Shown here piece after piece: positions 10,063 to 49,447 of a DNA stretch of 64,000 bases (position 1 is the first letter of the stretch; each line of letters begins with the position of its first letter). A program made the translations under genes and the position numbers. Location: the NCBI GenBank assembly GCA_016929895.1, contig JAFGHW010000001.1, forward strand, positions 135 through 64,134, in the 5' to 3' direction. This DNA is from Candidatus Woesearchaeota archaeon (GTDB lineage: Archaea; Nanobdellota; Nanobdellia; Woesearchaeales; ARS49). The notes below the pieces were generated by a model. The model was not told the DNA's origin. It made no database searches and saw only the letters and a list, made by a program, of their open reading frames with translations.

Positions 10063-10349
10063 ACAACAAGATTACACAGGAAAAGCTGTCAAAGTACTTT
10101 GATGTCACATCGCGCGCAATAGCAAAGGTAAAGATTAATTCTGAGCAAAAGTTTGACTGGAAATCCAAAGCAGAGGACTTTTTAGACATGGCCAACCGCT
10201 ATTTTTCAGATGCAAAACATTTTTCTGAAAGAGGAGATATTGTAACAGCATTTGCTGCATTGAATTACGCCCATGGCTGGCTGGATGCAGGAGCACGATT
10301 AGGCCTTTTTGATGTGGATGGTGATAGTGAGCTATTTACTGTAGATTGA
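10059..10349 (+). CDS. Conserved small archaeal protein of unknown function (possibly DUF357-like).
   Basis: 96-aa ORF overlapping the rpoK stop, co-oriented in the superoperon. Family assignment is from memory only. Confidence 0.35.
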   Translation: MNNKITQEKLSKYFDVTSRAIAKVKINSEQKFDWKSKAEDFLDMANRYFSDAKHFSERGDIVTAFAALNYAHGWLDAGARLGLFDVDGDSELFTVD

Positions 10350-10435
10350 AACAAATATTCTTTAATAAAAAAATAGAAACAACTAAAAAACCCTTGGTTT
10401 TTAGAGCTTCGAAAAATAAGAATATTTTTTCGAAA

Positions 10436-10445
10436 CATTTATAAG
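10436..10445 (+). promoter_or_regulatory. TATA-box-like element (ATTTATAAGC) ~70 nt upstream of the pdaD ATG. Followed by a GC-rich hairpin (GGGCG-TTTAC-CGCCC) in the leader.
   Basis: Position and sequence only. An AT-rich genome makes TATA calls weak. Confidence 0.25.
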
Positions 10446-10513
10446 CAAACCTTTTCAAATAGCCAGTATCAAATATACCAGAAGGAGTGGGCGTTTACCG
10501 CCCGGCGGTGAGA

Positions 10514-11140
10514 ATGAGTTATGGACGTGAAAACCAAAAACCAAAAACAATATTGGTCGGGAACAGAATCCCAAAAAGATTTTTCATAACAAAAGGCAAA
10601 GGCGAGAGTGATCTTGCCGTACACGCTGGTTCTTATCACTTAGCCCTAAAACAAGCAGAAATAGAACGCTGCAATGTAATGACTTATTCTTCAATACTGC
10701 CAAAAATCGCAACAGAAATAGAAAAAACACCTGGCGTAATAAACAGCTTAACACACGGCGCAGAACTAAACACAATAATGGCATGTTCAACAGCTGAAAA
10801 AGGCAAAAGAGCAACAGCAGGGATAATATTCGGATGGCTTTATGACAAAAAAACAGGGGAAAAATACGGCGGACTGGTATGCGAATACAACGGCGATTTA
10901 CCTGAAGAAGAGGCAAAAGAACTATTACATGCAAATCTTAACGAACTTTATACAAACGGATATTCAGAAGAATTTGAACTAAGACAAGGAAAACTAGTAA
11001 CAAAAAGCTTTGTTCCAGAAAAAAGATACGGAACAATACTAGTTGCTCTATGCTTCATAGATTATGAAATGCCGATAATAGAAGAAAAAGAAAACATTCT
11101 TGAAGAAGCAGCTATGCTGGAAGTCATAAGCAGCCAATAA
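10514..11140 (+). CDS. pdaD: Pyruvoyl-dependent arginine decarboxylase (PdaD). The ATG at 10514 is preferred over the GTG at 10487.
   Basis: IPKRFFITKGKGESDLAVHAGSYHLAL (GES self-cleavage region) and overall PdaD similarity. Confidence 0.8.
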   Translation: MSYGRENQKPKTILVGNRIPKRFFITKGKGESDLAVHAGSYHLALKQAEIERCNVMTYSSILPKIATEIEKTPGVINSLTHGAELNTIMACSTAEKGKRATAGIIFGWLYDKKTGEKYGGLVCEYNGDLPEEEAKELLHANLNELYTNGYSEEFELRQGKLVTKSFVPEKRYGTILVALCFIDYEMPIIEEKENILEEAAMLEVISSQ

Positions 11141-12004
11141 TCACTGTTTCTTACTCAAAACCTCATGAAAAGCATCAAAAATAGGATGGTCTGTGCTGAA
11201 ACTGAAAAAACCTGCGCCTATTTCTCCTGCGACTTGCTTTAGTTTAGCCCTGTGGACTGCGATTTTTTCAAGATATTTTTTCCTGCCAAAAGGAGAAATA
11301 AAAGTCCTCAAAATGCCCCTATTTTCAGCGTCAATCAGCTTAAAATCCCCCTCAACATCCTTTAAATCCTTTTCAACAACATCCAAAACCTGAATCAAAA
11401 TAATATCATGCCCCCTAAATCTCAACAATCCATGACGGACCTGCTCAGGGTCGTATAAAAAATCAGAAACAACAACAATTAAAGAACGAGAATTAACAAG
11501 TTTCTTGTACGCAGAAAGAGCTAATTCAAAATTAGTCTTTCCCTGGGGCTTTTTGGTATTAAGATAATCAAGAATAGACATTAACTGATTTTTTCCTTTT
11601 CTAGGCCTAAACAATTCAAGCTTATCTGCAAAAGTAGACAAAACAAACTTTTCATTATTCTTCAAAGCCATATAAGCAAAACCCAAACCAAACATAGAAG
11701 CATAATCTGCCTTTGAAATCCTCTTAGTGCCAAAATCCATGCTTGCACTGAAATCAACAATCACATGAACAACAAGATTTCTTTCTTCCTCAAATCTCTT
11801 AACAAACAATTTATCAGTCCTGGCAAAAGCTCTCCAATCAACACGGCGAAAATCATCACCAACAGCATACTGAGCATGGTCCTTAAAAACAAGACCCTGA
11901 CCTGCATAAACCGCTTTTCTCTCACCAACATAATTAGAAGTCATGCGCTTGTTAATAATCAAGCTAAGACGGTCCAGATGATGCAAAAATGTAGTATCAA
12001 TCAT
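11141..12004 (-). CDS. DUF58 domain protein (MoxR-associated, VWA-like).
   Basis: VGDDFRRVDWRAFARTDKLFVKRFEEERNLVVHVIVDFSASM matches the DUF58 core. Downstream of the MoxR ATPase. Confidence 0.8.
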   Translation of the reverse strand: MIDTTFLHHLDRLSLIINKRMTSNYVGERKAVYAGQGLVFKDHAQYAVGDDFRRVDWRAFARTDKLFVKRFEEERNLVVHVIVDFSASMDFGTKRISKADYASMFGLGFAYMALKNNEKFVLSTFADKLELFRPRKGKNQLMSILDYLNTKKPQGKTNFELALSAYKKLVNSRSLIVVVSDFLYDPEQVRHGLLRFRGHDIILIQVLDVVEKDLKDVEGDFKLIDAENRGILRTFISPFGRKKYLEKIAVHRAKLKQVAGEIGAGFFSFSTDHPIFDAFHEVLSKKQ

Positions 12005-12140
12005 TTTTATTTATCAATACACCAGCACTTGGGTACTGGCGTGAAGCCTCTTTTGCTTCTCAACCTCGCTACGCTCGGGTCGCTTTGTGTACTTTAATCG
12101 ATTCGCCGGCAAGACACACACACACAAGTGCCCTTTGCGC

Positions 12141-13094
12141 TCATTTTATTAACGTCTTAATAACATCATCAACATCCATATTCTGCCTTTCAGCTTCAAA
12201 ACTCAATATAAGCCTGTGCCTTAAAACAGGATAAGCCATTGCATTAACATCCTGTTTTGAAACAAACTTGCGGCCTTCTAACAACGCCCTTGCTTTTGCA
12301 GCCAAAACCAAGCCAATACTCGCTCTGGGAGACGCTCCATACTCAATCAAATTCTTTTTATTCCTTGTAGAAGTCACCAGATTAACAGCATACTTCTTGA
12401 TATCAGAAGAAATCGGGACCTGCCTAACAATCTGCTGCAAAAACAATAATGAATTTTTGTTAAGAACAGATTTAAGCTTGATAGGCTTTTGCTCAACTGC
12501 ATACCGATTTACAATCTCTAATTCTTCTTCTGGATTAGGATACTCTGTTTTTATTTTCAGCAAAAAACGGTCTGTCTGAGCTTCTGGCAAAGGATATGTT
12601 CCTTCCTGCTCAATAGGATTCTGAGTAGCTAAAACAAAAAAAGGCTGTTCTAGTTCAAAAGTAGAATTGCCAACAGTAACCTGCTTCTCCTGCATTGCCT
12701 CTAACAAAGCAGACTGAGTCTTAGGAGTAGCCCTGTTAATCTCGTCAGCTAAAATAATATTTGCAAAAATAGGGCCTGGCTGAAACTTAAAATTCCTTTT
12801 GCCGCTAGAACTATCCTCAATAATATAAGTTCCGGTAATATCAGAAGGCATAAGGTCAGGAGTATTCTGAATCCTGGAAAACTTCAAATCCATTAACTGC
12901 GCCACAGTACGCACAGCCAAAGTCTTTGCCAAACCAGGATAACCCTCTAGCAATGCGTGAGAATTAGTAAGCAAAGAAACAAGAATCTGCTTTACAACCT
13001 CCTGCTGGCCAACAATGACTTTTCCAATCTCATGCGTGATATGATCAAATGTTTTTTTTGTTTCTTCTAATTTCATTTTAATACCTCCTAACAA
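12141..13094 (-). CDS. MoxR-family AAA+ ATPase. The likely start is Met7 (13076).
   Basis: Walker A LLEGYPGLAKT, Walker B ILADEINRATP, VLATQNP sensor and MoxR C-terminal region. Confidence 0.85.
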   Translation of the reverse strand: MLGGIKMKLEETKKTFDHITHEIGKVIVGQQEVVKQILVSLLTNSHALLEGYPGLAKTLAVRTVAQLMDLKFSRIQNTPDLMPSDITGTYIIEDSSSGKRNFKFQPGPIFANIILADEINRATPKTQSALLEAMQEKQVTVGNSTFELEQPFFVLATQNPIEQEGTYPLPEAQTDRFLLKIKTEYPNPEEELEIVNRYAVEQKPIKLKSVLNKNSLLFLQQIVRQVPISSDIKKYAVNLVTSTRNKKNLIEYGASPRASIGLVLAAKARALLEGRKFVSKQDVNAMAYPVLRHRLILSFEAERQNMDVDDVIKTLIK

Positions 13095-14633: not shown

Positions 14634-17006
14634 CTATTCTTGTTTGACAATCCTCCTTATAAATATTTCTATCAAAAATAAAACAACAACAGCCATAACA
14701 AAAGGCCATCTAAAATTCTCCTTGGTAATAATTTCGCGTCTTGAACGAGTAATAGTATGATCAACCATGCCGTCAATATCATTCCTGTCAAAAACCTTTC
14801 CACCGGTATTAAACACAACACCTTCTAATTCATCACTAAAACCAAGAGTTTCATACTCAGAAGGATTATTAACAGCAAACGTAGCACCCAACACTTCATG
14901 AAATCCAACTTCCGTAGGAGTAATAGAAGAAGAATACATATTGTCATCAATCTTATAAAAAGAATAACCCTCTGCCTTTGGAGGAGAAGCAGAACGAACA
15001 ATCAACTCAGTAGTTTCAAAAACCCTTGTATCCCTAACATCAACAAATTCTTTTGATTTTCTATCAGGGTCACCAATAACCCAATTAAACATCCTGGAAA
15101 CAACCTTGGAATTAGCAGAACCAAGCATGTCACCATTCCAATTACGTCCATCATCAGTGCTCAAAGCAGCAATCCTTCCAAGACCAAGACGCCACACAGT
15201 AAGAACAGGCTCTCCTGTAGTAGTTGTAAGAAGAAGACGGGCAGATGTCTTTGGAACAACATTGTTAAAACCATGAATCGCTGCCTCAGGATAATAATCT
15301 GCAGTAATAAAATGATTAGGATTAAGAACAATAAGAGCCATAGTATCGCCAATCTCCTGCTCTTCAACATCACCAAACAATAATTTTAACCTAGAACTAT
15401 CTGTAGCCCTAAAATAAATACCATTAGAAATAGCAGCAATATCCTGCATGACCAATTCATTAGTAGTAGGACCAACACCAACAGTATAAATCTTAATACC
15501 CTGATTATGCGCTAATCTGGCAGCATCTCTTGACGCGCCTTCTCCCTGAGTCTTACCATCACTAATAAGAATAATATTCTTGCTTCCCTGCAGCCTCTCA
15601 AGCAAAGCAATAGCCTTCATCAAACCAGCAGTAATAAACGTGCCACCGCCATCAGCCAGCCTAGCAACACGGTCTTCTAACCCTTGTTTTTCATAAACAT
15701 AAGACGGCTCTGAAACAAGATATGCCTCTGTATTAAAAGCAACAAAACCCAAACGGTCATGCAGGCTCAAATCATTCAAAACACCCAAAGCCAAAGCCTT
15801 TTCAACATCTACTGTCTTGTCATCGCCAAAAGCAGCACTAGTACTGCCAGAAATATCAATAACAAGAATAATATTTATTTCCCCTTCTTTCTTGCCAGGC
15901 GCGCCGACAAAAACAGGCAAAATCGATTCAAAAACAGAATTTCTATAATCGCCCTTGTCAAAAGAAGCCTCGCCGCCAATAACCACCATACCATTTCCTT
16001 CTGCGATAAAATCAGTAATAACATCAGAAGCAGGGCCTGTTTTTTCAGCAGGAATATTATTAACAGCAAGAGCATAATAATCACTAAGTGACGAAGGAAG
16101 AGTAGAACCTGACTGAACAACATACATCTGGCCTAACAAAGTCTGCATAGGAGAAGGATTCTCTGTCCAATAAAAAATCTTAGGCTTAGGAACAACCTTA
16201 ACAGTCTTGGAAAAAACATTATTCTGCTCAAAATAATCATTTGTTAATAATCTTGCAACAATCTTATGATAGCCGTAATTCAATGTGTCAACAAACTGCT
16301 TGTTTTCATCAAGAGAAATTTTTTGACCGTCCAATGTAACTTCTAATTCATAACCAGGATTGCCAACCTCTGAAACAAAAACAGTAAAAGTATTAGGAAC
16401 ACCCTCCTGGGTTTTAGCAGGACCCAAAACAATAACACCTGCATCATCATGAATAGTATTCAAACGAACAGAATTAACAGTAGAATTAAGCTGGGCTGCA
16501 AACAAGCCAACATCACCCAAGCTAGAACCAACATTAGCATTGCCGTCTGAAATCAAAATAACACTATCCCTGGGCTTTAGATTGGCAAGAATAGCATCAC
16601 CCACATCAGAATGCTCTGCAGAACCAAAACTATAAACCTCAACAGGCAATTTTTTCTCCAGCTTTTGCGCTAATTCATAACCAATACTTTCATACAACTG
16701 CATTGAAGAAGAATTATCAATCAAAATCTTAATATAAGGGTCTCCTTCAATAGTTTTTTGGGCGTCATAAAAAGGAGAAGCAATTGCGATAAGAATTAAC
16801 AAAGCCATAATTGACCTGGTAATCCACATAATCCACTGAAGCTTTTTCTTTTTCTTAACAACATCTGCATCCTGCTTCATTTTAACAAAATCCCTTCTTA
16901 AAACAAAATACAAGATAACAACAATAGGAATCACTAACAATAGAATATACGGGTTTTCCAAATAGGCATAAGCAAGATTTTCAATTGCTTTAATACCAAA
17001 ACTCAT
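14634..17006 (-). CDS. Large membrane protein with two von Willebrand factor A domains (Bat-like).
   Basis: Two MIDAS-type motifs (ILIDNSSSMQ; ILVIDISGSTS ... GGGTFITAG ... ISDG), an N-terminal TM and a C-terminal TM helix. Confidence 0.7.
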   Translation of the reverse strand: MSFGIKAIENLAYAYLENPYILLLVIPIVVILYFVLRRDFVKMKQDADVVKKKKKLQWIMWITRSIMALLILIAIASPFYDAQKTIEGDPYIKILIDNSSSMQLYESIGYELAQKLEKKLPVEVYSFGSAEHSDVGDAILANLKPRDSVILISDGNANVGSSLGDVGLFAAQLNSTVNSVRLNTIHDDAGVIVLGPAKTQEGVPNTFTVFVSEVGNPGYELEVTLDGQKISLDENKQFVDTLNYGYHKIVARLLTNDYFEQNNVFSKTVKVVPKPKIFYWTENPSPMQTLLGQMYVVQSGSTLPSSLSDYYALAVNNIPAEKTGPASDVITDFIAEGNGMVVIGGEASFDKGDYRNSVFESILPVFVGAPGKKEGEINIILVIDISGSTSAAFGDDKTVDVEKALALGVLNDLSLHDRLGFVAFNTEAYLVSEPSYVYEKQGLEDRVARLADGGGTFITAGLMKAIALLERLQGSKNIILISDGKTQGEGASRDAARLAHNQGIKIYTVGVGPTTNELVMQDIAAISNGIYFRATDSSRLKLLFGDVEEQEIGDTMALIVLNPNHFITADYYPEAAIHGFNNVVPKTSARLLLTTTTGEPVLTVWRLGLGRIAALSTDDGRNWNGDMLGSANSKVVSRMFNWVIGDPDRKSKEFVDVRDTRVFETTELIVRSASPPKAEGYSFYKIDDNMYSSSITPTEVGFHEVLGATFAVNNPSEYETLGFSDELEGVVFNTGGKVFDRNDIDGMVDHTITRSRREIITKENFRWPFVMAVVVLFLIEIFIRRIVKQE

Positions 17007-18802
17007 ATGTCACCTCTAATTTTAATGTAAACCAATTCCAAAATCAACAAAATTGCGCCAATAACAATCAATGCAAACTCAAAATCATACCTTCTATTTT
17101 CCTTAACCGGCCTAAGCTCGTAATCAATAGATTTTGCGCCAAAACTTATCTTCCTGTTAAGATCAGATTCTAAACTATCCAATAAATTAACAGCAAGCTT
17201 TCTGTCTTCCAGCTCATAAATACCTGCTTCTTCCAGCAAATGAGCAGATTTTTTAATGCTTTTTCTGGACGGCAAAATTATTTTTTGCTTAGAATCCAAA
17301 ATCAACGTATCCTTTGTTTTATAATTCAAATTACTCAATTCCTGCTTGTCTGTCAAGTATTTAATCAATTCAGTCCAAAAAATAGGATAACTGGGCGAAA
17401 ACTTAAAATCAGAAGCAGACTCTAAAAAACCAAAATAAACAATCTTGCCTGCCCCTCTTTCTTCAAGAGCAATCAACGAAGAATTATCAGCACTCACTAA
17501 AGAAACCCCTCTTAAACCCGACACTTTAAAAAAAGAATCAACAGTAGAACCAAAATCAATATTCTTGGTAAAACGATTAACCTGGTCAATTACCAAGTAT
17601 GCTTTTCCCTGTTTTTCGCCTAATTTTAACGGAAGAAGCTCGCCATAATTAATACTGCCTGACTCTTCCTGAGCAACAATAACTGCTGAAGCTCCTTTTT
17701 CAACCTTGCTCAAAACATCCTCAAAAGTTCCAGTAAGAATCTTATTCTGCGCAATATTATGAAAAACATAAACATCATGCTCACCAGTCTTAACAACAGG
17801 CGGACTTGTTATATCCACAGTAACTAACCCAGAAGCATCTAAAGCATTTTTCAAAAAAATAGACTCATTATTTGTTGCCAACAAAACCTTTGTGGTTGCT
17901 TCCTCAGGAGCAGAAACATACAATGTATTATCAACTTCAAAATCATCATTATTAGTAATAACCAATTTAGTCATTCCCTTAGGAATTGTAAAAGAATAAG
18001 GCTCGACAGAATTTCCAGGAATGATTAATTGCTTATTTTCATTATTTACTTTCAAATTAATTGTTTTTTCATCAGTATTAAAATTTTTAATAAATGCTGT
18101 GGCCTGATTATCATCCAAAGACAAATCCACAAAACCGATATTAGATATTTCTTTTTCAGCAACATCAATAAAATCAACAACAATACCCTTAGAAGCCACA
18201 ACATTCTTAGCAACTTCAGGATCCTGGCCGCCAGTATTTTGAAAATCACTAATCACAACAACTCTTCCTTCTGTCAAAGCCTCTCCAGCCAAAATAATTG
18301 CATCGCCCAATCTTGACGGCGTATCCAATGGCTTTAATTTACTTAAAAAATCCCTTGCATCACTGCTAGAAGCTTCTTTCAAAGCAATCAAAGGAATACC
18401 CTTAGCCAAAATCACAGTGTTTTTTGAGCCCAAAGATACTCTTGCTTTTTTAATGGCTTTATCAAATCGGGTTGTTAATCCTTCTTTAGCCTGCATGCTT
18501 GCAGAAACATCAATAACTAAAACAGTATTCTTAGCAGTAATATCATGCGGATAAACAGAATACGGCTTTGCCACAGACAATAAAAGAGCCAAAAGCAACA
18601 ACAACTGGATAATAAACAACCAATCCCTGATAAAATTCCTTAAAAACGACAATAATTTATTCCTGCCATAATGCTTTGAAAAAAACATCAACGAAGGAAT
18701 CTTCAAAGTCTTAGGCCTGGGCCTAATAAGATAAAGCAAAATAAAAGGAATCAATGCTCCTAAAGCTATCAAACCTGCTTTTTCTGCAAAACCAATATGC
18801 AT
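17003..18802 (-). CDS. BatA-like VWA domain protein (aerotolerance-type N-terminal membrane domain).
   Basis: N-terminal LILLYLIRPRPKTLKIPSLMFF BatA-like motif, VLVIDVSASMQ MIDAS and a C-terminal TM helix. Confidence 0.7.
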   Translation of the reverse strand: MHIGFAEKAGLIALGALIPFILLYLIRPRPKTLKIPSLMFFSKHYGRNKLLSFLRNFIRDWLFIIQLLLLLALLLSVAKPYSVYPHDITAKNTVLVIDVSASMQAKEGLTTRFDKAIKKARVSLGSKNTVILAKGIPLIALKEASSSDARDFLSKLKPLDTPSRLGDAIILAGEALTEGRVVVISDFQNTGGQDPEVAKNVVASKGIVVDFIDVAEKEISNIGFVDLSLDDNQATAFIKNFNTDEKTINLKVNNENKQLIIPGNSVEPYSFTIPKGMTKLVITNNDDFEVDNTLYVSAPEEATTKVLLATNNESIFLKNALDASGLVTVDITSPPVVKTGEHDVYVFHNIAQNKILTGTFEDVLSKVEKGASAVIVAQEESGSINYGELLPLKLGEKQGKAYLVIDQVNRFTKNIDFGSTVDSFFKVSGLRGVSLVSADNSSLIALEERGAGKIVYFGFLESASDFKFSPSYPIFWTELIKYLTDKQELSNLNYKTKDTLILDSKQKIILPSRKSIKKSAHLLEEAGIYELEDRKLAVNLLDSLESDLNRKISFGAKSIDYELRPVKENRRYDFEFALIVIGAILLILELVYIKIRGDI

Positions 18803-18860: not shown

Positions 18861-19859
18861 TTATCCAGTTTTCTTAACCTCAAACTTGGGGTAAACGCCC
18901 GGCTCCATAAAAACCTTGGTTGTTTTAACAGCCAAACCCTTATCAGCTAAGATTATTTCTTCACTAGATAATTTTGCCTTGCCAAAAGCAACTAATTCAT
19001 CTTTCAACGTCATAATCACAACAATATCATCTTTTTTAATATCATCATGAAGCCTGCATACACCTGGAATTTTCAAATCAGCACCATGACAAACAGTATC
19101 AACAGCCAAATCATTAATCCAAACCTTAGAAATATGATTAATCGCAAACTCAATAGGATAAATTATTTTTCTTAATGGCAATTCCTTATTTTCATTTTTA
19201 AAATACCAAAAAGCATCTTTTAAATCCTGCAAATAAACCATATCTTTATCACTAAAAGGGCCTGCTTTTGTTCTGATTAATTGAGCCATATGTGCCCCTG
19301 TATTTAATTTCCTGCCAATATCATGGCAAAGCTTTCTAATATAAGTTCCTGCCTGACAGCCAACCCTGAATAAAATATCCTGCTCTTCAATTTCCATAAC
19401 TTCTAAATAATAAATAGTTCTCTTTCTTAATATTCTTCTAACCGCAGACTTAATTGGAGGAAGTTGCTCGATTTTTCCAATAAATTCTTTTAAAACTTTT
19501 TTTAATAATTTTTCATCAACCTTTTTATGCAAATGCATTATCGCAACATATTCTTTTCCTGCTGGCAAAAGAACTTGAGTAACTCTTGTTGCTCTGTCTA
19601 ATGCAATTGGCAAAACACCAGTAACACCAGGATCCAAAGTACCAGAATGACCTGCTTTTTTTAAATTCAAAATCTTTTTAACATGGTCAGCAACAATATG
19701 AGAAGTCGGACCAGAAGGCTTATTAATATTTACAACACCGTATTCTATTAATTTATTAACAGGTCTTTTATACGGATCTAAACCATAATCAGGATTAGTT
19801 TTGCAAGGTCTTTTAGTTAAAATTTCTCTTTCAATTATTTCAAAAGGAAGTTTAGGCAT
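18861..19859 (-). CDS. cbf5: H/ACA RNP pseudouridine synthase Cbf5 (TruB + PUA).
   Basis: GHSGTLDPGVTGVLPIAL catalytic motif and a C-terminal PUA-like region. Confidence 0.9.
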   Translation of the reverse strand: MPKLPFEIIEREILTKRPCKTNPDYGLDPYKRPVNKLIEYGVVNINKPSGPTSHIVADHVKKILNLKKAGHSGTLDPGVTGVLPIALDRATRVTQVLLPAGKEYVAIMHLHKKVDEKLLKKVLKEFIGKIEQLPPIKSAVRRILRKRTIYYLEVMEIEEQDILFRVGCQAGTYIRKLCHDIGRKLNTGAHMAQLIRTKAGPFSDKDMVYLQDLKDAFWYFKNENKELPLRKIIYPIEFAINHISKVWINDLAVDTVCHGADLKIPGVCRLHDDIKKDDIVVIMTLKDELVAFGKAKLSSEEIILADKGLAVKTTKVFMEPGVYPKFEVKKTG

Positions 19860-20684: not shown

Positions 20685-20957
20685 TTGCTGAAAACCACAA
20701 AGTTTTTATACTTCATGAACATTATTTATTATGCTGGTTAGTGTTAATGTAATTTTAAACTGTGTGCGTTAATCAAATTTCGCCGCACTATTTTTCTTTT
20801 TTTTATAACATTTTACTTCTTAATAACACTTATTTAACAAAATTCAGAATTCTTCCGAATAGATCAGAAATAATACTGATTTAACCAAACAAAATTAAAA
20901 ATAAAAGAAAAAAAACAAAATAAATACGAAAAAATCGGAAAAAAAGAAATAAAAAAA

Positions 20958-23900
20958 TTATTTTACTGCCTTGTCAATATCTTCCTTAGACCATCCCTGC
21001 TGTCTTAAACTCTGCCTTATTCTTGGCTCTTTAAAACCCTTGCTTTTTGCGTCCTTAACATATTTTTTCAAAGGAGACAAAACATCAGGTTTTTTCAAAA
21101 ACTTAACATAATAAACCAAAAAGCCCAAAGCAATAGCAGTAGCCAACAAAATAATAATTACAGGAACAAGCCATGCAGGCTTTTCAACACGGCAAGGAGC
21201 ACAAGGGCCTCCGCAATCAATACCTTCTTCGCCTTGGTTTTGAATACCATCAAAACAACTAGCAACAGGCTTGGCAGGAGGAACATATTCTGGAGTACAT
21301 GATTGTGTTTCAGCAGGTTTTTGCAAGATTAAATGACACTCAGGATAATCATTCAAAAAGCAAGTCCTTGTCTGAATACCATTAGCACTGCACGCACTCC
21401 ACGCATTACAAATCCAGTCATCCATGCACTCAGTAACTTCCTGCTCTGCAACTGTCTGCTTATACCAGCTACTTCCGCCGCCACCGCCTCCAGTAGCACC
21501 AGGAGTTCCAGGAGCAGCAGGAGGATAAGAAGGTTCAGGACAAGCACCGCAAGAACCACCACAATCAACACCAGTTTCATCATAGTTCTGAACATTATCA
21601 AAACAATGAGGGAAACTAACAGTAATCACATTAGCGCTATAAACAATATCAACTCTAGGGCCATGCAAGTTAAATACATCTCCCCTGTTTAACACGTCTA
21701 AAGCAACCATAACACCAGTAGCAGAATCGCCAGCAACAACCAACCTGTAAGGATTATGTTGCACTAAAATCAAAGCCCTGCCTGTTGTCAATGCATTACA
21801 TTCTGCGGTTCCAAGAACATTTTCAACCCAGCTGTTATCATTACAAGTTCCTATTAATACTGTATTCAAATTATTAAAATTATTCAAAGAAAGACCTGCA
21901 GGAGGTATTGAATCAGGTATTGAAATCCTATAAGAAGTTATTACAGTTGGCGGGTCCTCACAAACATTTGTGCTAGGATTGCAATAACCAGAAGTACAAT
22001 CCGAATCATCACTGCAAGAATGACCATTAGCCCACGGAGGCGTTGTGTCACATAAATTAGTGTCAGGATTACAATAACCAGAAATACAATCTGAATTATC
22101 AGAACAAGCATAACCAATAGGCCAAGGAGGACCAGTAGCATTACCAACACAGACACAGCCAATACAGTTCTGATTAACAGTGCATTGGTAATCAAACTCG
22201 CATTGCTCACCAACATCAATATTGCCGTCACCACAATACGGTCCTGAAGGCACAGGAACACCACCAAGAGCTATTGCGTCTATTAAAAAATTATAATCTG
22301 CTCCCTCATTATTATAACCTTCACAAGATGCATCAGTTGAAATCATATGGTCAAAACGACCTTCAGTAATATGATCAGGAGCATTCCAGCAAGCATATAA
22401 TTTCTTTGTTCCAGACACTACATCTACAGGGGCATAACCTAATACGCTATACTGATAAGTTTCATCAGGGCAAGAAGTTCCTGAAAAAACAAAATGATCA
22501 ACATAAGTATGACCATCATATCGCTCCTGCCTATAACACTGAGCAACAGGAACAGTATCTGGCTGCTGTTCTTTATACAAATGACCCAACAATCCATCAA
22601 CACTATTTCCTCCGCAATTTGATTCAAAAGATACATAATGGTTTACAACATGGGGGCCGCCAGACCAATGCTGAACCCAGTAACATCTATAGATTGGATT
22701 TGTTTCATACTGCTGGTCCATGCAAACAAAAGTATCTGCATCACAATAACCTGAAACACAAGCAGAATTATCAGTGCAAGAATGGCCATTAAGCCAAGGA
22801 GGAGCAGTGCAAACATTACCTATACAATCAAGACCCTGCACACAATCAGCAGCAATTAAACAAGATTCGCCTTCCTGATTAGGAGCAATAACTGGCTCTA
22901 AAAAATTAAATGAAATGCCTTCATTATCATAACCTTCACAAGCAAAATCAATAGAAACCATATGGTCAAAACGACCATCACTAATATGGTCTGGACGATT
23001 ATGACAGCTATGTACGCCAACAGTATTTGATGCCTCGATTAAAGGGGCATAGCCTAATAAAGAATGAGTGTTCGTACCATCAGGACAACCATTAGAAACA
23101 ACAAAATGGTCAACATAAGTATGATGATCATGTCTTGTATTTCTTATACACTGATACAATGGAACAGTATTTGCCTGCTGATCAGTATACAAATCACCAA
23201 TAAAACCATCAACATGATTGCCCTCGCAATTAGCATTTTCAGACAAATAATGATTAATAACATGAGGGCCGCCAGACCAATGCTGAGACCACCAGCAACG
23301 GTAAACATGATTTCTCTTAGGCAATGGAGAATCAGCACAAAGGCCGCTGCTTTGGTCGCAATAATTAGAACCACAATCTGAATTCAAAGTGCAGGAATGC
23401 CCATTAGGCCAAGGAGCTGAAACACAAACATTATTAAAACAGTCAAGACCGCTTTCACAATCAGAAACAACATTACAAGCTTCTCCTTCTTTAGATTTCG
23501 CGCCCTCTGGCTTTAAAAAATTAAAAATCACATACTCATTATCATAACCTTCACAAAGAACATCTGATGAAACCATATGATCAAAACGACCATCACCTAC
23601 ACTGTCTGGACGATTCCAACACCTATATACTTCTTTTGATTCAGGCACAGCAGTTTCAGGAGCATAACCCAACAAGTTATACTCGTATGATATCTCAGGG
23701 CAAGAAGTTCCTGAAAAAATAAAATGATCAACATAAGTATGACTATCATGCCTTGTCTGCCTATAACATTGAGCAACAGGAACAGTATTCGGCCTTTGTT
23801 CTATATACAAATCACCAACAACACCATCAACAGTATCTCCGCCGCAATCGGGGTCTTCTGATAAGTAATGATTAATAACTGTAGGGCCGCCAGACCAATG

Positions 23901-25388
23901 CTGGTTCCAATAACAACGATAAATAGTTTTTCTTATAGTAGGAGCTGGAGCAGTGCAAATACCTGCAGAACAAGTGGCACAATCAACAATTTCTTCGTTT
24001 ATACCAGAACTAATCCTTTTATTATCACAAAAATATTCATGCAGTTTTCCATTGCTATCACAATAATCTGTTTTAGATTCCTGAGCAATATTACTTGTAG
24101 TAGTTCCCTGAACTAAATGCTCTCTTCCATTATCTGTTTCCTCGCAAAAAGGAAACATATACCATTTGCCTTCAAGAACACTTTCGCTAGGGCAAGCATC
24201 GGCACTTATTTGAAAATGCTCATCCTGCTGTGAATTCAACAAAACAGGTGCGCTGCCAAGCTCAGTTTTACACCTTAATAAAGGAACAGTCCCTGCCTGT
24301 TCATTATGGTAAACATATCCCAAGTCAGCCCTCCATTCAGTTGCAGGGTCGCATTCATTGGCTGCAATTAAATGGTCATCACCAGCAGGCCAATAACAAT
24401 AAACAAGCTTAACAGTATCATCATGCCTATCCTTGAACACATTGCCGAGAACAAACTCCATATTACCTTCAGGACAAGAAGGGCTCGTATGAACATAATA
24501 ATCATTAGCACCATTTGCTTTAGTTCTTTTGCAAACATATAAAGTGGCTTTTTCTTCTGTAACAGGGGCAGCACTAACCTGTTTTATAAAATTAAAAATT
24601 ATATTTTCATTATTATAGCCTTCACAACCTGCAGAAGAAGAATCCATATGGTCCCATCTTCCGTCTCTAACACTATCCGGAGCATTCCAGCACCTGTAAA
24701 TCTTCTTAGTATCAACAGTTTCTGCTGCCGGAGCATAACCTAAAAGTCCATCCAAACTAGTTCCATCAGGGCAATTGCCTGCAACAGTAAAATGGTCAAA
24801 ATAAGTATGACTATCATATCTTGCATTTCTTATACACTGATTAATAACAACTGTATCAGGCTGTTGAGTCTTATACAAATAACCAACCAAACCGTCTGCA
24901 TTATTGCCATCACAATTAGAATTTTTAGACAGATAATGATTAATAACATGAGGGCCGCCAGACCAGTGCTGAGTCCACCAACAACGATAAACAGGGTCTA
25001 CTTCTGAATCAAGAACAACATTTCCAGTAACAAAATTTGCGAAAAAAGAACCAGTAGGAGTGCTAATAACAGTATCACTCATATCATTGCAATCATAACC
25101 TGCGCCATTAACAATCTCGCACATTTTGGTTTGAAGAAGATCATAAAGAATCGTTATATCATAGCTTGAGTCAACAACAATAGCATCTTCAAAAGAAAGA
25201 ATATAATCAACATCATCATCAACTAAAAACTGCTCAGGAAAATCAGACAATTCAGGAATAGATGGAGGTGTGTACGTATGAATTGCTTTACCATAAAATC
25301 TGCTAAACATGCCTGGCTGGTCAGTGCAACCTGCAAGAATGAATAAAGAAATAATCAGAACTGTAAGCAATATATAGTTACTCTTCAT
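20958..25388 (-). CDS. Giant (1476 aa) secreted type I membrane protein: signal peptide, four ~200-aa Cys/Trp-rich repeats (YRCWW.QHWSGGP.VINHYLS...), EGF-like Cys knots (GHSC..NSDC.SGYC) and one Myxococcus-type CGDG..EQC motif. C-terminal TM helix plus a short basic cytoplasmic tail.
   Basis: Single uninterrupted ORF. Repeats visible at protein and DNA level. N-terminal MKSNYILLTVLIISLFILAGC and C-terminal PVIIILLATAIALGFLVYYVKFLKK. Confidence 0.7.
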   Translation of the reverse strand: MKSNYILLTVLIISLFILAGCTDQPGMFSRFYGKAIHTYTPPSIPELSDFPEQFLVDDDVDYILSFEDAIVVDSSYDITILYDLLQTKMCEIVNGAGYDCNDMSDTVISTPTGSFFANFVTGNVVLDSEVDPVYRCWWTQHWSGGPHVINHYLSKNSNCDGNNADGLVGYLYKTQQPDTVVINQCIRNARYDSHTYFDHFTVAGNCPDGTSLDGLLGYAPAAETVDTKKIYRCWNAPDSVRDGRWDHMDSSSAGCEGYNNENIIFNFIKQVSAAPVTEEKATLYVCKRTKANGANDYYVHTSPSCPEGNMEFVLGNVFKDRHDDTVKLVYCYWPAGDDHLIAANECDPATEWRADLGYVYHNEQAGTVPLLRCKTELGSAPVLLNSQQDEHFQISADACPSESVLEGKWYMFPFCEETDNGREHLVQGTTTSNIAQESKTDYCDSNGKLHEYFCDNKRISSGINEEIVDCATCSAGICTAPAPTIRKTIYRCYWNQHWSGGPTVINHYLSEDPDCGGDTVDGVVGDLYIEQRPNTVPVAQCYRQTRHDSHTYVDHFIFSGTSCPEISYEYNLLGYAPETAVPESKEVYRCWNRPDSVGDGRFDHMVSSDVLCEGYDNEYVIFNFLKPEGAKSKEGEACNVVSDCESGLDCFNNVCVSAPWPNGHSCTLNSDCGSNYCDQSSGLCADSPLPKRNHVYRCWWSQHWSGGPHVINHYLSENANCEGNHVDGFIGDLYTDQQANTVPLYQCIRNTRHDHHTYVDHFVVSNGCPDGTNTHSLLGYAPLIEASNTVGVHSCHNRPDHISDGRFDHMVSIDFACEGYDNEGISFNFLEPVIAPNQEGESCLIAADCVQGLDCIGNVCTAPPWLNGHSCTDNSACVSGYCDADTFVCMDQQYETNPIYRCYWVQHWSGGPHVVNHYVSFESNCGGNSVDGLLGHLYKEQQPDTVPVAQCYRQERYDGHTYVDHFVFSGTSCPDETYQYSVLGYAPVDVVSGTKKLYACWNAPDHITEGRFDHMISTDASCEGYNNEGADYNFLIDAIALGGVPVPSGPYCGDGNIDVGEQCEFDYQCTVNQNCIGCVCVGNATGPPWPIGYACSDNSDCISGYCNPDTNLCDTTPPWANGHSCSDDSDCTSGYCNPSTNVCEDPPTVITSYRISIPDSIPPAGLSLNNFNNLNTVLIGTCNDNSWVENVLGTAECNALTTGRALILVQHNPYRLVVAGDSATGVMVALDVLNRGDVFNLHGPRVDIVYSANVITVSFPHCFDNVQNYDETGVDCGGSCGACPEPSYPPAAPGTPGATGGGGGGSSWYKQTVAEQEVTECMDDWICNAWSACSANGIQTRTCFLNDYPECHLILQKPAETQSCTPEYVPPAKPVASCFDGIQNQGEEGIDCGGPCAPCRVEKPAWLVPVIIILLATAIALGFLVYYVKFLKKPDVLSPLKKYVKDAKSKGFKEPRIRQSLRQQGWSKEDIDKAVK
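22300..25050 (-). repeat. Internal tandem coding repeats (4 units, ~600 nt each) within the giant surface-protein gene.
   Basis: Recurrent near-identical peptide blocks (HWSGGP, YRCWN.PDS..DGR.DHM, NF[IL]). Mirrored by repeated spurious opposite-strand ORFs beginning MINNMRAARP at ~23.1, 23.9 and 24.8 kb. Confidence 0.5.
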
Positions 25389-25509
25389 CTACTCAACCTC
25401 CTTTTACACTATAACTATAAGTATAAATTAATGATAAATTAGAATAAACTATATATAAATGTTTCTATCAAATCAATAGAATCATACTCAATATTTCTTA
25501 GAAAATAGC

Positions 25510-38572: not shown

Positions 38573-39030
38573 ATAAAAAAATAATATTTTTAATTATAGT
38601 GATTTTATTAGCCGCGCTTGTTTACGGCGGAGTTAGAACACCAACAACACCGTGGTATGAAGTAGAAGAATGGGAAATAGAAGTCTGCTCAAAATTCGCC
38701 GGAAACACTGCTCCTGAAAATGCAGAAACAGAAACTGGATTTGCCGCGTACGGAACAACAAGCATGACAATACAAGCATACAAAACAAATCTGGGCGATG
38801 AAAACTTCTATGAAGTATATTATTACATCGAACCATATGAAGAAACACAACAATATATTTTACAATTAGTTAATGAAAACCAAAAACTGAATTATGAAAT
38901 AGCATCAGGCACAATAGGAATAAATGCAGGAGTTGCAGATTATTACACAAATTATTCAACACAAAACTTTAATGAAGTGCGATTAGTGCACAAATACGGA
39001 GCATTCAAGGTTCCGATAATAGAAAGATGA
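38566..39030 (+). CDS. Membrane-anchored small protein B (N-terminal TM, Tyr/Glu-rich ectodomain).
   Basis: ORF overlapping neighbours by 7 nt and 4 nt (translational coupling). Confidence 0.4.
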   Translation: MLNKKIIFLIIVILLAALVYGGVRTPTTPWYEVEEWEIEVCSKFAGNTAPENAETETGFAAYGTTSMTIQAYKTNLGDENFYEVYYYIEPYEETQQYILQLVNENQKLNYEIASGTIGINAGVADYYTNYSTQNFNEVRLVHKYGAFKVPIIER

Positions 39031-41483
39031 AAACAAATAAAGCCAATGCCGCGCCACGTTATGGAAGCAAAGCACAAGTAACACTATTTATTATCCTTGG
39101 AATAATTATTTTACTTGCATTAGGATTAGGAATATACTTTGCAACAAAAGTAATTATCAAGCCAAAAATGCCGGCGACAGAAACCGCGATACAAGAATAT
39201 GTCCAGGAATGCATAAAACAAACAGCAATAATCGCGCTAAAAAAAATAGGGGACAATGGAGGATATATTTCATTTGAAAACAAATACAGAGAATTTAATT
39301 TACAAACAGAACCAGCAGAAGGAGACGGGCTGCCAATCTCTGAAATAGAACTGTACTCAATACCCTGCTGGTGGTATATGAAAACACCAAACCAATGCAA
39401 CAACTGCTATTTAACATCAGACAATATGCCATTACTTCCAGAAATAGAAGAACAAATCAATGAGTATGTTGCTAACAATTTAAACATATGCATTAAAGGA
39501 TTTGCGCCGTTCACTAACCAATACACAATCAAAACAAAACAAGAACCAATAATAGAAACACAAATCACAAAAGACTCAATAAGAATAACTTCTGAATACC
39601 CTATAGAAATCTCAAAAGCAGGGCAAACAACAAAAATAAAAGACTTTGAAACAGAAATAAATGTAAAATTCAAGGACATATATGATTTGGCCACTGAAAT
39701 AATAAACCTGGAAAAAGAAAAATCAGTAATTGAAGAAAGAATAATGCACATGCTGAGCGCGCATATGGGCGCGTCTTATGACAAACTGCCGCCAATATCA
39801 GAAATAACACACGACTATTATCTAATCACATGGGCGAAAGAAATAGTAAAAATAAAAATACAACAAACACTAAACAGTTACATGCCATTGCTTAGATTTT
39901 ACGGAACAAAAAACTCCAAAGAAATAAACTCAAAAAACAAATACACAAAAGGATTTTACAATGCAATGCAAATAAATGACCTCAACAAAAAATACAACTT
40001 ATTTTTAGACATATCCTATAATGACTGGCCGATTTATTTTTCAATAAACCCAGAACCATTAACAGGAACATATCACAAACAAAACTTCCCATATGACATA
40101 CTCCCGCCAATACAAACAAATACATATGAATTTTATTACGACCTGTCTATCCCGCTTTTATTCCAAATAAGAGACTCAAACGCATTTGGAGGAGAAGGAT
40201 ATACTTTGAATTTTGCAGTAGAAACAAACATAAGAGACAATAAAAACCCAAACAACTGGAATATCGGACAAGGAACATTAGGACCATGGGATTCAAGCAA
40301 AACAAAACAAGAAACACTAATAATCAACAGAACATCAGGCAAATGCACTGAAACAGCAGGAAAATACCAATGCAGTATTGACAACAAAAAATACGAAACA
40401 ATAACACAATGCACAGAAATGTGCTACACAGAAAAAAGAATAAGCCAAACAAAAAAAATATTTAAAACAGAGTTCTGCTCTGCTGAACAAAAACTAAGCG
40501 GAAAAATAAAAATAATCGTAAAATCAGGGCAAGAAAAAATAGAAACCGCAGGAATAAGCTACCGCTGCGGAAATTATAAAACCTGTTCTATAGGAATTAC
40601 CGACGAGAACGGAGAAGCAGAATTCCAACTGCCAATCTGCTATGGCGGAGCATTATCAGTACACAAACCAGGATATAAAACTGAAAAAGTTTCATTAAAC
40701 ACAGAAATAAACAAAGCAGAAATAATCAATTTTGACTTGAAAAAAGAAAAAGAATTCACAGTCAGCTTTAAAAAAATGCCTATAACTTCAACAGAAACAA
40801 AAAATGGAATAGAAGCAAGCTGCTGCGACAAAAAACAAAACCCTATTTCAACACAAAAAGCAACATTGAGCATAGAAAAAGTCAAAGAAAATCCTATTGA
40901 CACCTCGTTTGTACAAGCAATTGTTATTGACCAAGATTCAAAAATAAAATTAGTCCCGGGAAAATACAAAGTAACAATGCAATACCTTGACGAAATAGGA
41001 ATAGTAATCCCAGCAGAATGCAAATCAGTCTGCATAGAAGAAAAACAAAACAACGCAATCAAAGCATGCAGCACCGCATGCAAGGAAAACACAGAAATAA
41101 GCAAAACCAGCTGCAAAATAATATTCCCATTAAAACCAGAATGGTGCGAAGACCTGGACTTTGCAAAACAACAATGCGAAGAACACTGCGCAAAAACAGA
41201 ATGCAAAAAATGGATGAAACTGCCTGAAGAAGACATGAACATCAGGCCGGCTTTATTAGGCGGAGCAATGATTGATTCTGAAAACGGATACTGGATTGTT
41301 ACAGAAGCAGACATAAACTCAGGACTCACCAATATCAATTTTTACGTTCTAGAAGTACCAACGCCAACATGCCTTGATACAACAGGATGTGCATACCCGC
41401 CATGCATAGGATTAGACGAAATAGGAAAAATAAAAGAATATTCTGACTTATTCAGACAAGAATTAGAACCAGTATTTAGCTAA
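39027..41483 (+). CDS. Large (818 aa) surface protein P1 with a class III (type IV pilin-like) signal-peptide-like N-terminus and a carboxypeptidase-regulatory-like beta-sandwich motif. Paralogue of P2 and P3.
   Basis: N-terminal ...RYGSKA|QVTLFIILGIIILLALGLGIYF. Conserved blocks GDNGGYI, PCWWYM, GGEGYTLNFA, and TDENGEAEFQLPICYGGALSVHKPGYK. Confidence 0.55.
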   Translation: MKTNKANAAPRYGSKAQVTLFIILGIIILLALGLGIYFATKVIIKPKMPATETAIQEYVQECIKQTAIIALKKIGDNGGYISFENKYREFNLQTEPAEGDGLPISEIELYSIPCWWYMKTPNQCNNCYLTSDNMPLLPEIEEQINEYVANNLNICIKGFAPFTNQYTIKTKQEPIIETQITKDSIRITSEYPIEISKAGQTTKIKDFETEINVKFKDIYDLATEIINLEKEKSVIEERIMHMLSAHMGASYDKLPPISEITHDYYLITWAKEIVKIKIQQTLNSYMPLLRFYGTKNSKEINSKNKYTKGFYNAMQINDLNKKYNLFLDISYNDWPIYFSINPEPLTGTYHKQNFPYDILPPIQTNTYEFYYDLSIPLLFQIRDSNAFGGEGYTLNFAVETNIRDNKNPNNWNIGQGTLGPWDSSKTKQETLIINRTSGKCTETAGKYQCSIDNKKYETITQCTEMCYTEKRISQTKKIFKTEFCSAEQKLSGKIKIIVKSGQEKIETAGISYRCGNYKTCSIGITDENGEAEFQLPICYGGALSVHKPGYKTEKVSLNTEINKAEIINFDLKKEKEFTVSFKKMPITSTETKNGIEASCCDKKQNPISTQKATLSIEKVKENPIDTSFVQAIVIDQDSKIKLVPGKYKVTMQYLDEIGIVIPAECKSVCIEEKQNNAIKACSTACKENTEISKTSCKIIFPLKPEWCEDLDFAKQQCEEHCAKTECKKWMKLPEEDMNIRPALLGGAMIDSENGYWIVTEADINSGLTNINFYVLEVPTPTCLDTTGCAYPPCIGLDEIGKIKEYSDLFRQELEPVFS

Positions 41484-42145
41484 GAAATTTCCTGAATATC
41501 TGAAATAATAAAACAATTATTCCTAACATTTGCAGAAACAATATTCTCGCAATATTCTTTGTTTGACTGGCCAAAAAAGAAAAAACAATTGTCCCTGATA
41601 TCTGAATTTACTATTTGATTGCAGGCATTTGCATTATCAGAATTCTTTGCAACCAGAGAAATACATTCATCACTATTTTCCAAAAGACTGCACTGTTCTA
41701 ATGCAGATTGCGGATTAGAATTACTAAGCTCGCGAATCTCTTCCAAGGTTTTGGACGGGATAGCTTCTGTTTTTTTAACAAATTCTTTTTCAACAATTTT
41801 TTCCTCTATTTCTTCTTCAACATACGGCTCAGAAGGAGCAGCAGGCCTTTCGGACGGAACAGCAATCCATTTCTGCGCTTGTGTTTGTTTTTCAACAGGA
41901 ACCTTTACTAATTCTTCTGCAGGACGAATAAAAGAAATAAAAACCAAACCAACAATAACAAGAATTATTGCAATAATCAATAAAATCGAAAAAGAAATCA
42001 AAAAAGAACGCCTCTTAGCCCTGACGTCTTCCAAAGCCTGCTCAATCTGATAAGAAGAAAAACCCCTTTTCATAAGCTCAAGCTTTAATTCAGGCAAAGG
42101 CATGCCAGAATGCTTTTTAACATAATCCAACAAAGCTCTATCCAT
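41480..42145 (-). CDS. Single-pass membrane protein with a Cys-rich C-terminal domain (opposite strand, inside the cluster).
   Basis: ORF track. TM helix FLISFSILLIIAIILVIVGLVFISFI. Repeated C...N..C spacing at the C-terminus. Confidence 0.4.
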   Translation of the reverse strand: MDRALLDYVKKHSGMPLPELKLELMKRGFSSYQIEQALEDVRAKRRSFLISFSILLIIAIILVIVGLVFISFIRPAEELVKVPVEKQTQAQKWIAVPSERPAAPSEPYVEEEIEEKIVEKEFVKKTEAIPSKTLEEIRELSNSNPQSALEQCSLLENSDECISLVAKNSDNANACNQIVNSDIRDNCFFFFGQSNKEYCENIVSANVRNNCFIISDIQEIS

Positions 42146-42176
42146 ACAAGAATGATTAATCAGTTGTTATAAATAT

Positions 42177-42593
42177 TTATTGGTCAATCTTGGACAAATC
42201 CTGATTAAGAATGATTGGATTCATCCCAATCAATTCATCACTCAGACTATTATTTTCAGGAATAGGATTCATCAAGAAAACCGGCTTTCCTAACTCAAAT
42301 GCTTTAAATATCTCAAGAAAAGTTGCTCCGCCAATATAATTCTGTTGCCCGCGCTTTTCAAAATTCATAACAAGAATTGCATCATTTGCCATTACTTTTT
42401 CAATCTGTTTTCTTAAATAATAACTCTTAACCCTAATATGCTCTTCTCTTCCTTTTGCTTTAACTTTTTCTTCCAGCATAGGATCATCAAAACTATTAGG
42501 TAGAGTAATAGAATGACCTTTTTTTTCTAATTCTTCCTTAATAGGAGGAATCAAATGATACAAATGCTTGCTGGCACAAATAAAGATTTTCAT
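42177..42593 (-). CDS. Nucleoside 2-deoxyribosyltransferase-like protein (PF05014-like Rossmann fold).
   Basis: MKIFICAS...DAILVMNFEKRGQQNYIGGATFLEIFKAFELGKPVFLMNPIP resembles the deoxyribosyltransferase family pattern. Confidence 0.4.
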   Translation of the reverse strand: MKIFICASKHLYHLIPPIKEELEKKGHSITLPNSFDDPMLEEKVKAKGREEHIRVKSYYLRKQIEKVMANDAILVMNFEKRGQQNYIGGATFLEIFKAFELGKPVFLMNPIPENNSLSDELIGMNPIILNQDLSKIDQ

Positions 42594-42697
42594 AACTCCA
42601 CTAAAAAGTGTACAAAATATAAATCTTACTATTCACTCATAAAAAACAGTTAAATTTAAATACCCTAATTCTAAAATACCCAATATATAGTGATATG

Positions 42698-42797
42698 TCA
42701 AGAACCACCATTCGAATACAGGTGGTATGATAATTTGACTTTGCATCGAGTGGTTCTTGATGCTCAGGATTTCATCAATCTGGCGGTTCTTGAGCAC
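42698..42797 (+). promoter_or_regulatory. Array of three copies of a TGG[T/C]GGTTCTTGA motif (one inverted) plus a 6-bp hairpin, in the divergent intergenic region upstream of P2.
   Basis: tcaagaaccacca (42698-42710, inverted), tggttcttga (42751-42760), tggcggttcttga (42781-42793). TATA-like taaatataaa and AAGGAGGT SD precede the ATG at 42865. Confidence 0.3.
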
Positions 42798-42864
42798 AAC
42801 ATATTCCACTTAAATATAAACTAACAGATTGGTGGAATCCTGTTGTTAGAAAAAGGAGGTATTA

Positions 42865-48356: not shown

Positions 48357-48396
48357 AAAAATTTGGGGCAAATTTTTTTGTGTTCATAATAAAATT

Positions 48397-49446: not shown

Positions 49447-49447
49447 A

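Follow-up and report, generated by a model that had tools for sequence, protein, structure and literature searches.

The gene at 20958..25388 (- strand) of a 64,000-nucleotide stretch of a Candidatus Woesearchaeota archaeon contig (JAFGHW010000001.1; the whole analysed stretch is called the window below) encodes a 1476-amino-acid (aa) Cys-rich surface protein, the repeats of which very probably constitute a diverged, Cys-containing member of the DUF5648 superfamily (Pfam PF18885). Five such modules are carried between protein ends that are conserved among the orthologs, while the central part is variable. The chances that the protein is a multivalent lectin-like (glycan-binding) adhesin with a variable centre are judged, by family analogy, to be about even. 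In the preliminary description of the sequence, the repeat with the HWSGGP block was not recognised as any domain. Although no library model matches it directly, both the profile search and the structure prediction of the module lead to DUF5648, a known family that is suspected to be lectin-like.

The comparison of the whole protein and of eight separate segments with Pfam and NCBIfam gave nothing significant; on the whole protein, PF18885 was without a match at E ≤ 1. The isolated modules reached at best 12.7 bits (E 0.15) with PF18885, below the gathering threshold of 25 bits. The modules of the orthologs P0002, P0003 and P0005 scored 41.6, 30.2 and 24.8 bits, respectively, which places the syntenic orthologs P0002 and P0003 above the cut-off and P0005 just under it. 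Few full-length homologues were found in 5.8 billion sequences, and their modules align column-for-column with those of the 1476-aa protein. The search of 1.84 billion representatives with a profile of 13 modules resulted in 849 proteins at E ≤ 1e-3. Among the 79 shorter profile matches that were scanned, 37 were PF18885 (best E 1.4e-70), and the module was not covered by any rival family. With hhalign, four of the protein's own modules were aligned to canonical Cys-free DUF5648 domains, all matching PF18885 (up to 3e-35), with a probability of 95.7% and an E-value of 9.3e-9 over 94 columns. Taken together with the predicted strand order, the ortholog matches, the profile search and the hhalign result therefore indicate that the repeat is not a new domain. 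Sequence searches of the PDB with three profiles (own modules, the 13-module set and canonical DUF5648) revealed no relatives, and the Foldseek comparison of the module model with the PDB gave nothing at E ≤ 1e-3.

The AlphaFold2 model of module 1 (pLDDT 93.5, pTM 0.86) contains nine strands in three beta1-beta2-(one-turn helix)-beta3 units. The predicted strands are 4-15, 21-28 and 37-46 in blade 1 (helix 33-35), 53-65, 68-77 and 85-94 in blade 2, where no helix was called, and 101-108, 121-124 and 133-142 in blade 3 (helix 129-131). This order is the same as the (beta3-alpha)3 order published for DUF5648, in which each of the three ~45-aa subdomains is built as beta1-beta2-alpha-beta3 (PMC11299179), with the helices of the model being vestigial. 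The module is thus predicted to be compact and pseudo-threefold, with three blades that each follow the order beta1-beta2-(short alpha)-beta3. Because of the alignment and the predicted strand order, the HWSGGP block is assigned in the model to the beta1-beta2 hairpin of blade 1, which carries the five-residue insertion WSGGP. The insertion was found only in the 1476-aa protein and in its fragmentary orthologue P0007, with a variant, HWDGP, on the contig L005; it is missing from the otherwise alignable modules of P0005.

The likeness to DUF5648 covers the length of ~135–150 aa, the division into three ~45–50-aa subdomains ordered beta1-beta2-alpha-beta3, an aromatic-R pair at the start of beta1, a D-H-[FYM] motif in every blade, the homology at the profile level and the extracellular accessory or targeting setting. 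In contrast to canonical DUF5648, the modules have two invariant Cys per blade at the canonical aromatic/acidic positions, helices cut to one turn and the WSGGP insertion in the blade-1 hairpin. They also occur as five tandem copies on an archaeal membrane-anchored protein, whereas a bacterial toxin or enzyme carries canonical DUF5648 once, at a terminus. Across the wider family, the two Cys of blade 2 (columns 54/81) were both present in 229 cases, both absent in 33 and present singly in 6; the corresponding counts for blade 3 (columns 108/130) were 112, 10 and 2. Since the two Cys of a blade are gained and lost together, each blade probably contains one disulfide. Cross-blade Cys pairs co-vary as well, and hence the pairing is one that we infer.

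All five modules, each of ~150 aa, were located with a hidden Markov model (HMM) of the module, and are named M1, M0, M2, M3 and M4 in their order from the N-terminus (Table 1). The four non-degenerate modules were each detected with an E-value of about 1e-58, far beyond chance, and share 54–59% of their amino acids. The degenerate M0 (E 4e-43) is a fifth copy that was overlooked in the preliminary description, where four repeats of ~200 aa had been reported. The 1476-aa open reading frame (ORF) and every motif listed there are present, in four copies: HWSGGP at aa 141, 497, 703 and 907, YRC[WY]W at aa 134, 490, 696 and 900, QC.R...HTY.DHF at aa 184, 540, 746 and 950, and DGR.DHM at aa 242, 599 and 804, the fourth copy of the latter being EGRFDHM. 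The repeat unit itself is shorter, however, and the ~205-aa period (615-nt spacing), composed of a module and two 4-Cys knots, applies only to M2-M3-M4. The distance from M1 to M2 is 356 aa, with M0 and a small Cys-rich domain in between. The latter had no match in the Pfam and NCBIfam libraries and is located likewise downstream of the modules in P0002–P0004. M4 is followed by the CGDGN motif, three knots, a ~117-aa alpha/beta domain, a Cys cassette, the transmembrane (TM) helix and the tail. Each module is internally triplicated into ~48-aa units, the blades, which contain the two invariant Cys in the pattern x-Y-x-C ... D-H-[FYM] ... C-x-G ... G.

The seven knots of the protein contain 4 Cys in two spacings, C-x5-C-x5-C-x4-C and C-x5-C-x4-C-x6-C. 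They had been described as epidermal growth factor (EGF)-like, which is unsupported because they have four Cys, in place of the six Cys and three disulfides of EGF, and match no EGF model (EGF_integrin, E 0.2). Sub-threshold matches were obtained with DUF7107 (17.5 bits, cut-off 24.6) and Dickkopf_N (14.2 bits), and a weak one with the NCBIfam model TIGR04201, Myxo_Cys_RPT (19.3 bits, cut-off 25, E 9e-4). The CGDGN..GEQC segment, reported earlier as a Myxococcus-type repeat, is present but had no relevant NCBIfam or Pfam match at E ≤ 10; the resemblance appears at best weak and belongs to the knots. Similarly to the Cys-rich repeats of Myxococcus (TIGR04201, also in the outer-membrane exchange protein TraA), the knots are short 4-Cys units with the spacing C-x5-C-x4-C-x6-C and are rich in D/N/S/G. 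Unlike those repeats, they score below the cut-off, are hosted by an archaeon and space putatively lectin-like modules.

The gene is located in a slot, S19e - small ORF - L31e - gene - Cbf5 - ... - BatA/VWA, which is common to the contigs L001, L003, L004 and the window. The syntenic orthologs P0002–P0004 occupy this same chromosomal slot and share with the 1476-aa protein, as do P0005 and P0006, the signal peptide with its Cys, the N-terminal region, the C-terminal domains, the TM helix and the tail. The identities to P0002/P0003 were 68–72% in the N-terminal region, 66–79% in the aa 1146-1262 domain, 74–81% in the Cys cassette and 60–81% in the TM helix and tail, whereas that of the centre was only 21–24%. 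P0004 is more distant throughout, its ends being 48–66% and its centre 24% identical. Modules number 1–3 in P0002–P0006, and the centres of the syntenic orthologs consist of one or two modules, other unassigned segments and, in P0002 and P0003, DUF11. The latter is carried also by P0005, below the Pfam cut-off, and P0006 is named 'DUF11 domain-containing protein' in NCBI. In contrast, DUF11 is absent from the 1476-aa protein, which carries five modules and seven knots. With those of the non-syntenic P0005/P0008, its modules share 41–44% identity, compared to 29–36% with those of the syntenic P0002/P0003. Because the modules are nearer to the non-syntenic proteins, the comparison suggests that the centre arose by cassette replacement and not by divergence in place.

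The number of modules across the relatives was determined to be 1, 2, 3, at least 4, and 5. As had been stated in the preliminary description, the repeats are visible in the DNA (60–80% identity, 615-nt spacing), and they are the most prominent direct repeats in the 64-kb window. Over whole modules, the DNA identity is 67–72% and the longest exact common run is 33 nt; with Tandem Repeats Finder only short low-complexity repeats were reported, the modules being too diverged for detection. P0007, from an independent contig of another sample, is colinear with the protein at 55% identity through the N-terminus, M1, M0, the Cys domain, M2, the knots and M3. The modules have remained orthologous by position: M0 and its counterpart in P0007 share 52% identity, against about 20% between M0 and the other modules, and the modules of P0005 and P0006 pair by position at 80, 73 and 86%. 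Since the DNA identity is low, the exact runs are short, P0007 is colinear and the positions are kept, ongoing slippage or assembly collapse is unlikely and the array appears to be old and stable. The recombinational size variation proposed earlier finds weak support in the differing module number among orthologs, but the copies are old and positionally orthologous, and the variation looks like the result of ancient duplication and cassette replacement over longer times. Neither inverted repeats nor a template repeat of the diversity-generating-retroelement type were found anywhere in the window, and no paralogues were found elsewhere in it. The family is rare (about a dozen loci across all searched collections), and every named close relative is Candidatus Woesearchaeota. 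No relative was found when the N-terminal profile was run against the GTDB species genomes, and the scan of metagenomes gave only five loci, mostly truncated.

The hydropathy analysis revealed no hydrophobic segments besides aa 1-25 and 1401-1432. This agrees with the earlier view that the repeat protein is large and Cys-rich and carries a signal sequence at its N-terminus, a single TM helix near its C-terminus and a basic tail. The type I topology that was assigned at the same time is consistent with the two segments and the Lys/Arg-rich tail, but the signal peptide ends in a lipobox-like L-A-G-C at aa 18-21. The Cys is kept in 11/11 family members, within the variants IAGC, LAGC, FSAC, FTSC, ITSC, LLSC, VAGC and VSGC. 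Because of this conserved Cys, the topology may be that of a lipid-anchored N-terminus combined with a C-terminal TM helix and not plain type I. With the two elements, the protein would be fixed to the membrane at each of its ends.

The conserved N-terminal region (aa 22-126) has an identity of 48–75% in the close family (P0002-4, P0007, P0019, P0070) and no match in the Pfam/NCBIfam libraries. The idea that it folds together with the aa 1146-1262 domain, as in the S-layer anchor of M. voltae, was dropped; P0005 has a domain of the aa 1146-1262 type alone near its N-terminus. The C-terminal Cys cassette consists, in order, of C.D..QN..E.G.DCGG.C..C, a Pro/Gly linker, W.C..WS.C...G.QTR.C and a second ..DCGG.. 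motif; the tryptophan-containing motif has a likeness to the thrombospondin type-1 repeat that was noted only by eye. No Pfam/NCBIfam model matched the DCGG-type motif in the protein, and the PDB sequence search with the C-terminal domain gave no relatives. When the C-terminal 331 aa were used as the query, 118 of the 120 best matches contained the motif C.DG.QN.GE.G.DCGG.C..C, which is present twice in the cassette. It often forms long tandem arrays in them, and DPANN archaea, Myxococcota and Bacteroidota are among the named matches. The tail motif ...RIRQSLRQQGWSKEDIDKAVK is kept in all homologues and is also C-terminal on DPANN proteins with unrelated ectodomains (P0156, P0229, P0245). The motif may serve these proteins as a shared signal for sorting or docking. 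The cytoplasmic tail gave only weak matches with the RecX three-helix domain (E 0.03–0.2).

The 1476-aa protein contains 1 N-glycosylation sequon (N-x-S/T), compared to 12.2 expected from shuffles, and none of the 2000 shuffles (0/2000) was as low. Sequons were scarce also in the relatives, with 0 versus 6.4 expected in the P0007 fragment and 2 versus 12.2 in P0070. The window contains other large ORFs that have a hydrophobic segment at the N-terminus (52195-57792, 39027-41483 and 42865-45045, all on the + strand), and these were sequon-poor too, with 4, 1 and 0 sequons versus 11.7, 6.9 and 4.4 expected, respectively. Window-wide, 25 sequons were observed in the ORFs with an N-terminal hydrophobic segment (63.5 expected) and 25 in the remaining ORFs (40.2 expected).

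DUF5648 is the C-terminal domain of BSAP-2 and BSAP-3, toxins of Bacteroidales that target the O-antigen (PMC12853789; bioRxiv 10.1101/2025.01.06.631476), and in BSAP-1, a toxin of the same class, receptor binding was shown to reside in the C-terminal domain (PMC12853789). It is also a C-terminal accessory domain with surface aromatic grooves in GH70 GtfB-type glucanotransferases (PMC11299179) and is fused to a GH25 endolysin (bioRxiv 10.64898/2026.04.26.720912). In published work (PMC12853789, PMC11299179), binding to glycans or cell walls is regarded as the probable role of the family. Cell-wall hydrolases are fused to the domain, muramidases among them, and CHAP (4) and M23 (2) fusions were detected among the profile matches scanned here.

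By analogy with this family context, the modules would be binding units for glycans or cell-wall polymers. The protein would be exported via its lipobox-type signal peptide and held by the C-terminal TM helix and the short cytoplasmic tail, and its ectodomain would display the five tandem modules with the 4-Cys knots as rigid spacers. Five modules on one tether would give avidity. By means of the adhesin, the cell would become attached to polysaccharides on the surface of a partner or host, or to a polymer substrate. In related genomes, the scaffold of N- and C-terminal parts is conserved and remains in its slot, while the central, putatively binding cassette is swapped or changed in copy number. 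The adhesin role is suggested because the modules would be glycan or cell-wall binding by homology and five of them share one membrane anchor; a variable centre on a conserved scaffold is, in addition, the pattern expected of a specificity determinant. Woesearchaeota belong to a group believed to be dependent on contact with other cells, which makes a multivalent adhesin the most economical reading. The literature search for Woesearchaeota adhesins or lectins gave nothing relevant. Against this interpretation, the modules of the protein itself remain under the Pfam threshold of PF18885, glycan binding by DUF5648 is in the literature context-derived, with no ligand demonstrated for any member, and lipoprotein processing in DPANN archaea is so far putative.

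The adhesin interpretation was weighed against other explanations of the array. That the HWSGGP repeat represents a previously unknown domain family would agree with the lack of significant library matches for the whole protein and the isolated modules, with the lack of PDB sequence relatives and with the narrow occurrence of the WSGGP insertion. This is, however, scarcely credible, given the orthologous modules over the PF18885 threshold, the canonical DUF5648 proteins reached by the profile search, the hhalign probability, the strand order shared with the published family (PMC11299179) and the fact that WSGGP is a five-residue hairpin insertion lacking in alignable P0005 modules. Nearly as improbable is that the array was created by the assembly, or that it recombines actively and varies in length. 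The internal repeats are indeed the strongest direct repeats of the window and the module number varies among relatives, but the diverged copies offer little substrate for collapse or slippage, and both the colinear independent contig of P0007 and the positional orthology of the modules are in disagreement with it.

Concerning the function, the protein could be the main envelope (S-layer-type) protein, the ends of which anchor it in the membrane with the Cys-rich centre as a structural canopy. Several archaeal S-layer proteins have a signal peptide and a C-terminal TM anchor, as the 1476-aa protein does, and the gene is present in a single copy in a conserved housekeeping neighbourhood, straight after the S19e and L31e genes, with its own TATA-like box and a strong Shine-Dalgarno sequence. 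Typical archaeal S-layer glycoproteins, on the other hand, are not sequon-poor in the way of this protein. The central architectures of close syntenic orthologs are quite different, and the centre is derived from a domain family that elsewhere has accessory or targeting roles on toxins and hydrolases (PMC12853789), so that the S-layer role is considered unlikely. A comparably low probability was given to the binding of a polymeric substrate for feeding, in the manner of carbohydrate-binding modules, in place of a partner cell. It differs from the adhesin interpretation in the target only and shares its mechanism; no catalytic domain was detected in the protein by the Pfam/NCBIfam scans, no glycoside hydrolase was seen among the scanned neighbouring genes, and the protein is membrane-tethered and not secreted. 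A more far-reaching form of the adhesin interpretation, which is rated as improbable, is that the L31e-Cbf5 slot encodes the host-recognition adhesin of the lineage. Its both ends would be membrane-tethered (N-terminal lipid, C-terminal TM helix), the exchange of the lectin cassette (DUF5648, DUF11, others) between loci and lineages would set the choice of partner glycan, and the near-total avoidance of sequons would keep the cell's own glycans off the modules.

The SPEARE proteins of Nanohaloarchaeota are large host-interaction surface proteins of DPANN archaea. Like the 1476-aa protein, they are very large, specific to their lineage and composed of several domains, are secreted or anchored, and belong to archaea with reduced genomes and a probable dependence on other cells; the domain content is unlike, and the comparison is one by description and not by sequence. 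DPANN archaea, including Woesearchaeota, are uncultured organisms with reduced genomes that are believed to be attached to other microbes by molecules that are largely unknown. The gene is a concrete candidate for such an attachment molecule, with five probable glycan-binding modules, a membrane anchor, a conserved locus and a variable binding region. It extends DUF5648 into archaeal surface proteins in a form, putatively disulfide-containing, that is missed by current models, and provides a high-confidence predicted model for a family without a solved structure. The results point to neither a novel fold nor a novel mechanism; the remaining interest lies in the archaeal reach of DUF5648, the conserved locus with a swappable centre and the sequon depletion.

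Table 1. Features of the 1476-aa protein gene and its flanks in the window, listed in the direction of transcription.
Feature	Residues (aa)	Position	Strand	Basis
Promoter/ribosome-binding-site-like region		25396..25459	-	read straight from the sequence; putative function
Whole gene	1476 in total	20958..25388	-	ORF and NCBI identity
Signal peptide ending in lipobox-like LAG/C	1-21	25326..25388	-	hydropathy and family alignment
Conserved N-terminal region	22-126	25011..25325	-	
Module M1, DUF5648-like, three-bladed (predicted), WSGGP insertion in blade-1 beta1-beta2 hairpin	128-273	24570..25007	-	
Module M0, degenerate, DUF5648-like	278-420	24129..24557	-	module HMM
Small Cys-rich domain (C.ETDNG...DYC...L.EYFC...C..C..G.C)	415-478	23955..24146	-	
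Module M2	484-631	23496..23939	-	module HMM
Two 4-Cys knots	638-655 and 666-684	23337..23477	-	
Module M3	690-836	22881..23321	-	module HMM
Two 4-Cys knots	843-860 and 871-889	22722..22862	-	
Module M4	893-1039	22272..22712	-	module HMM
CGDGN..GEQC motif and three more 4-Cys knots	1052-1143	21960..22235	-	
Conserved ~117-aa alpha/beta domain	1146-1262	21603..21953	-	
C-terminal Cys cassette	1262-1399	21192..21605	-	
Transmembrane helix	about 1403-1430	21099..21182	-	hydropathy
Basic cytoplasmic tail, 46 aa, Lys/Arg-rich, motif ...RIRQSLRQQGWSKEDIDKAVK	1431-1476	20961..21098	-	
T-rich tract directly after the stop codon, like an archaeal oligo-T terminator		20926..20957	-	putative function

The ORF starts with ATG and is a genuine gene: its N-terminus agrees with those of the orthologs, and an identical protein is deposited in NCBI as 'hypothetical protein JW851_00160 [Candidatus Woesearchaeota archaeon]'. 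The protein contains 85 Cys (5.8%) and 27 Trp (1.8%). A strong Shine-Dalgarno sequence, AAGGAGGT, is located at 25403-25396, 7 nt 5' of the ATG, and an AT-rich TATA-like box, TTTATATATA, at 25459-25450, ~62 nt upstream of it. The neighbouring genes of the window are archaeal, encoding a Cbf5/TruB-type pseudouridine synthase, L31e and S19e, as determined from the translations and the ortholog loci. The Cbf5 of the window (18861-19859, 332 aa) is without an intein. On L001 (GCA_975000015.1), the Cbf5/TruB gene at 10101-12569, which adjoins the orthologous surface-protein gene, encodes an intein-bearing protein of 822 aa (Intein_splicing and LAGLIDADG_3). The downstream BatA/VWA pair (14634-18802, - strand) consists of proteins of 599 aa (BatA, DUF7407 and DUF7408) and 790 aa (VWA), and is syntenic with the surface-protein locus in three related contigs. 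Elsewhere in the window, at 39027-57792 on the + strand, large ORFs of 818, 726, 1104, 366, 875 and 1865 aa are arranged in series. They are almost without Pfam matches, only the 1865-aa protein having Glucodextran_B and Big domains. With hydrophobic N-termini in all except the 875-aa one, the series looks like a cluster of more uncharacterised surface proteins.

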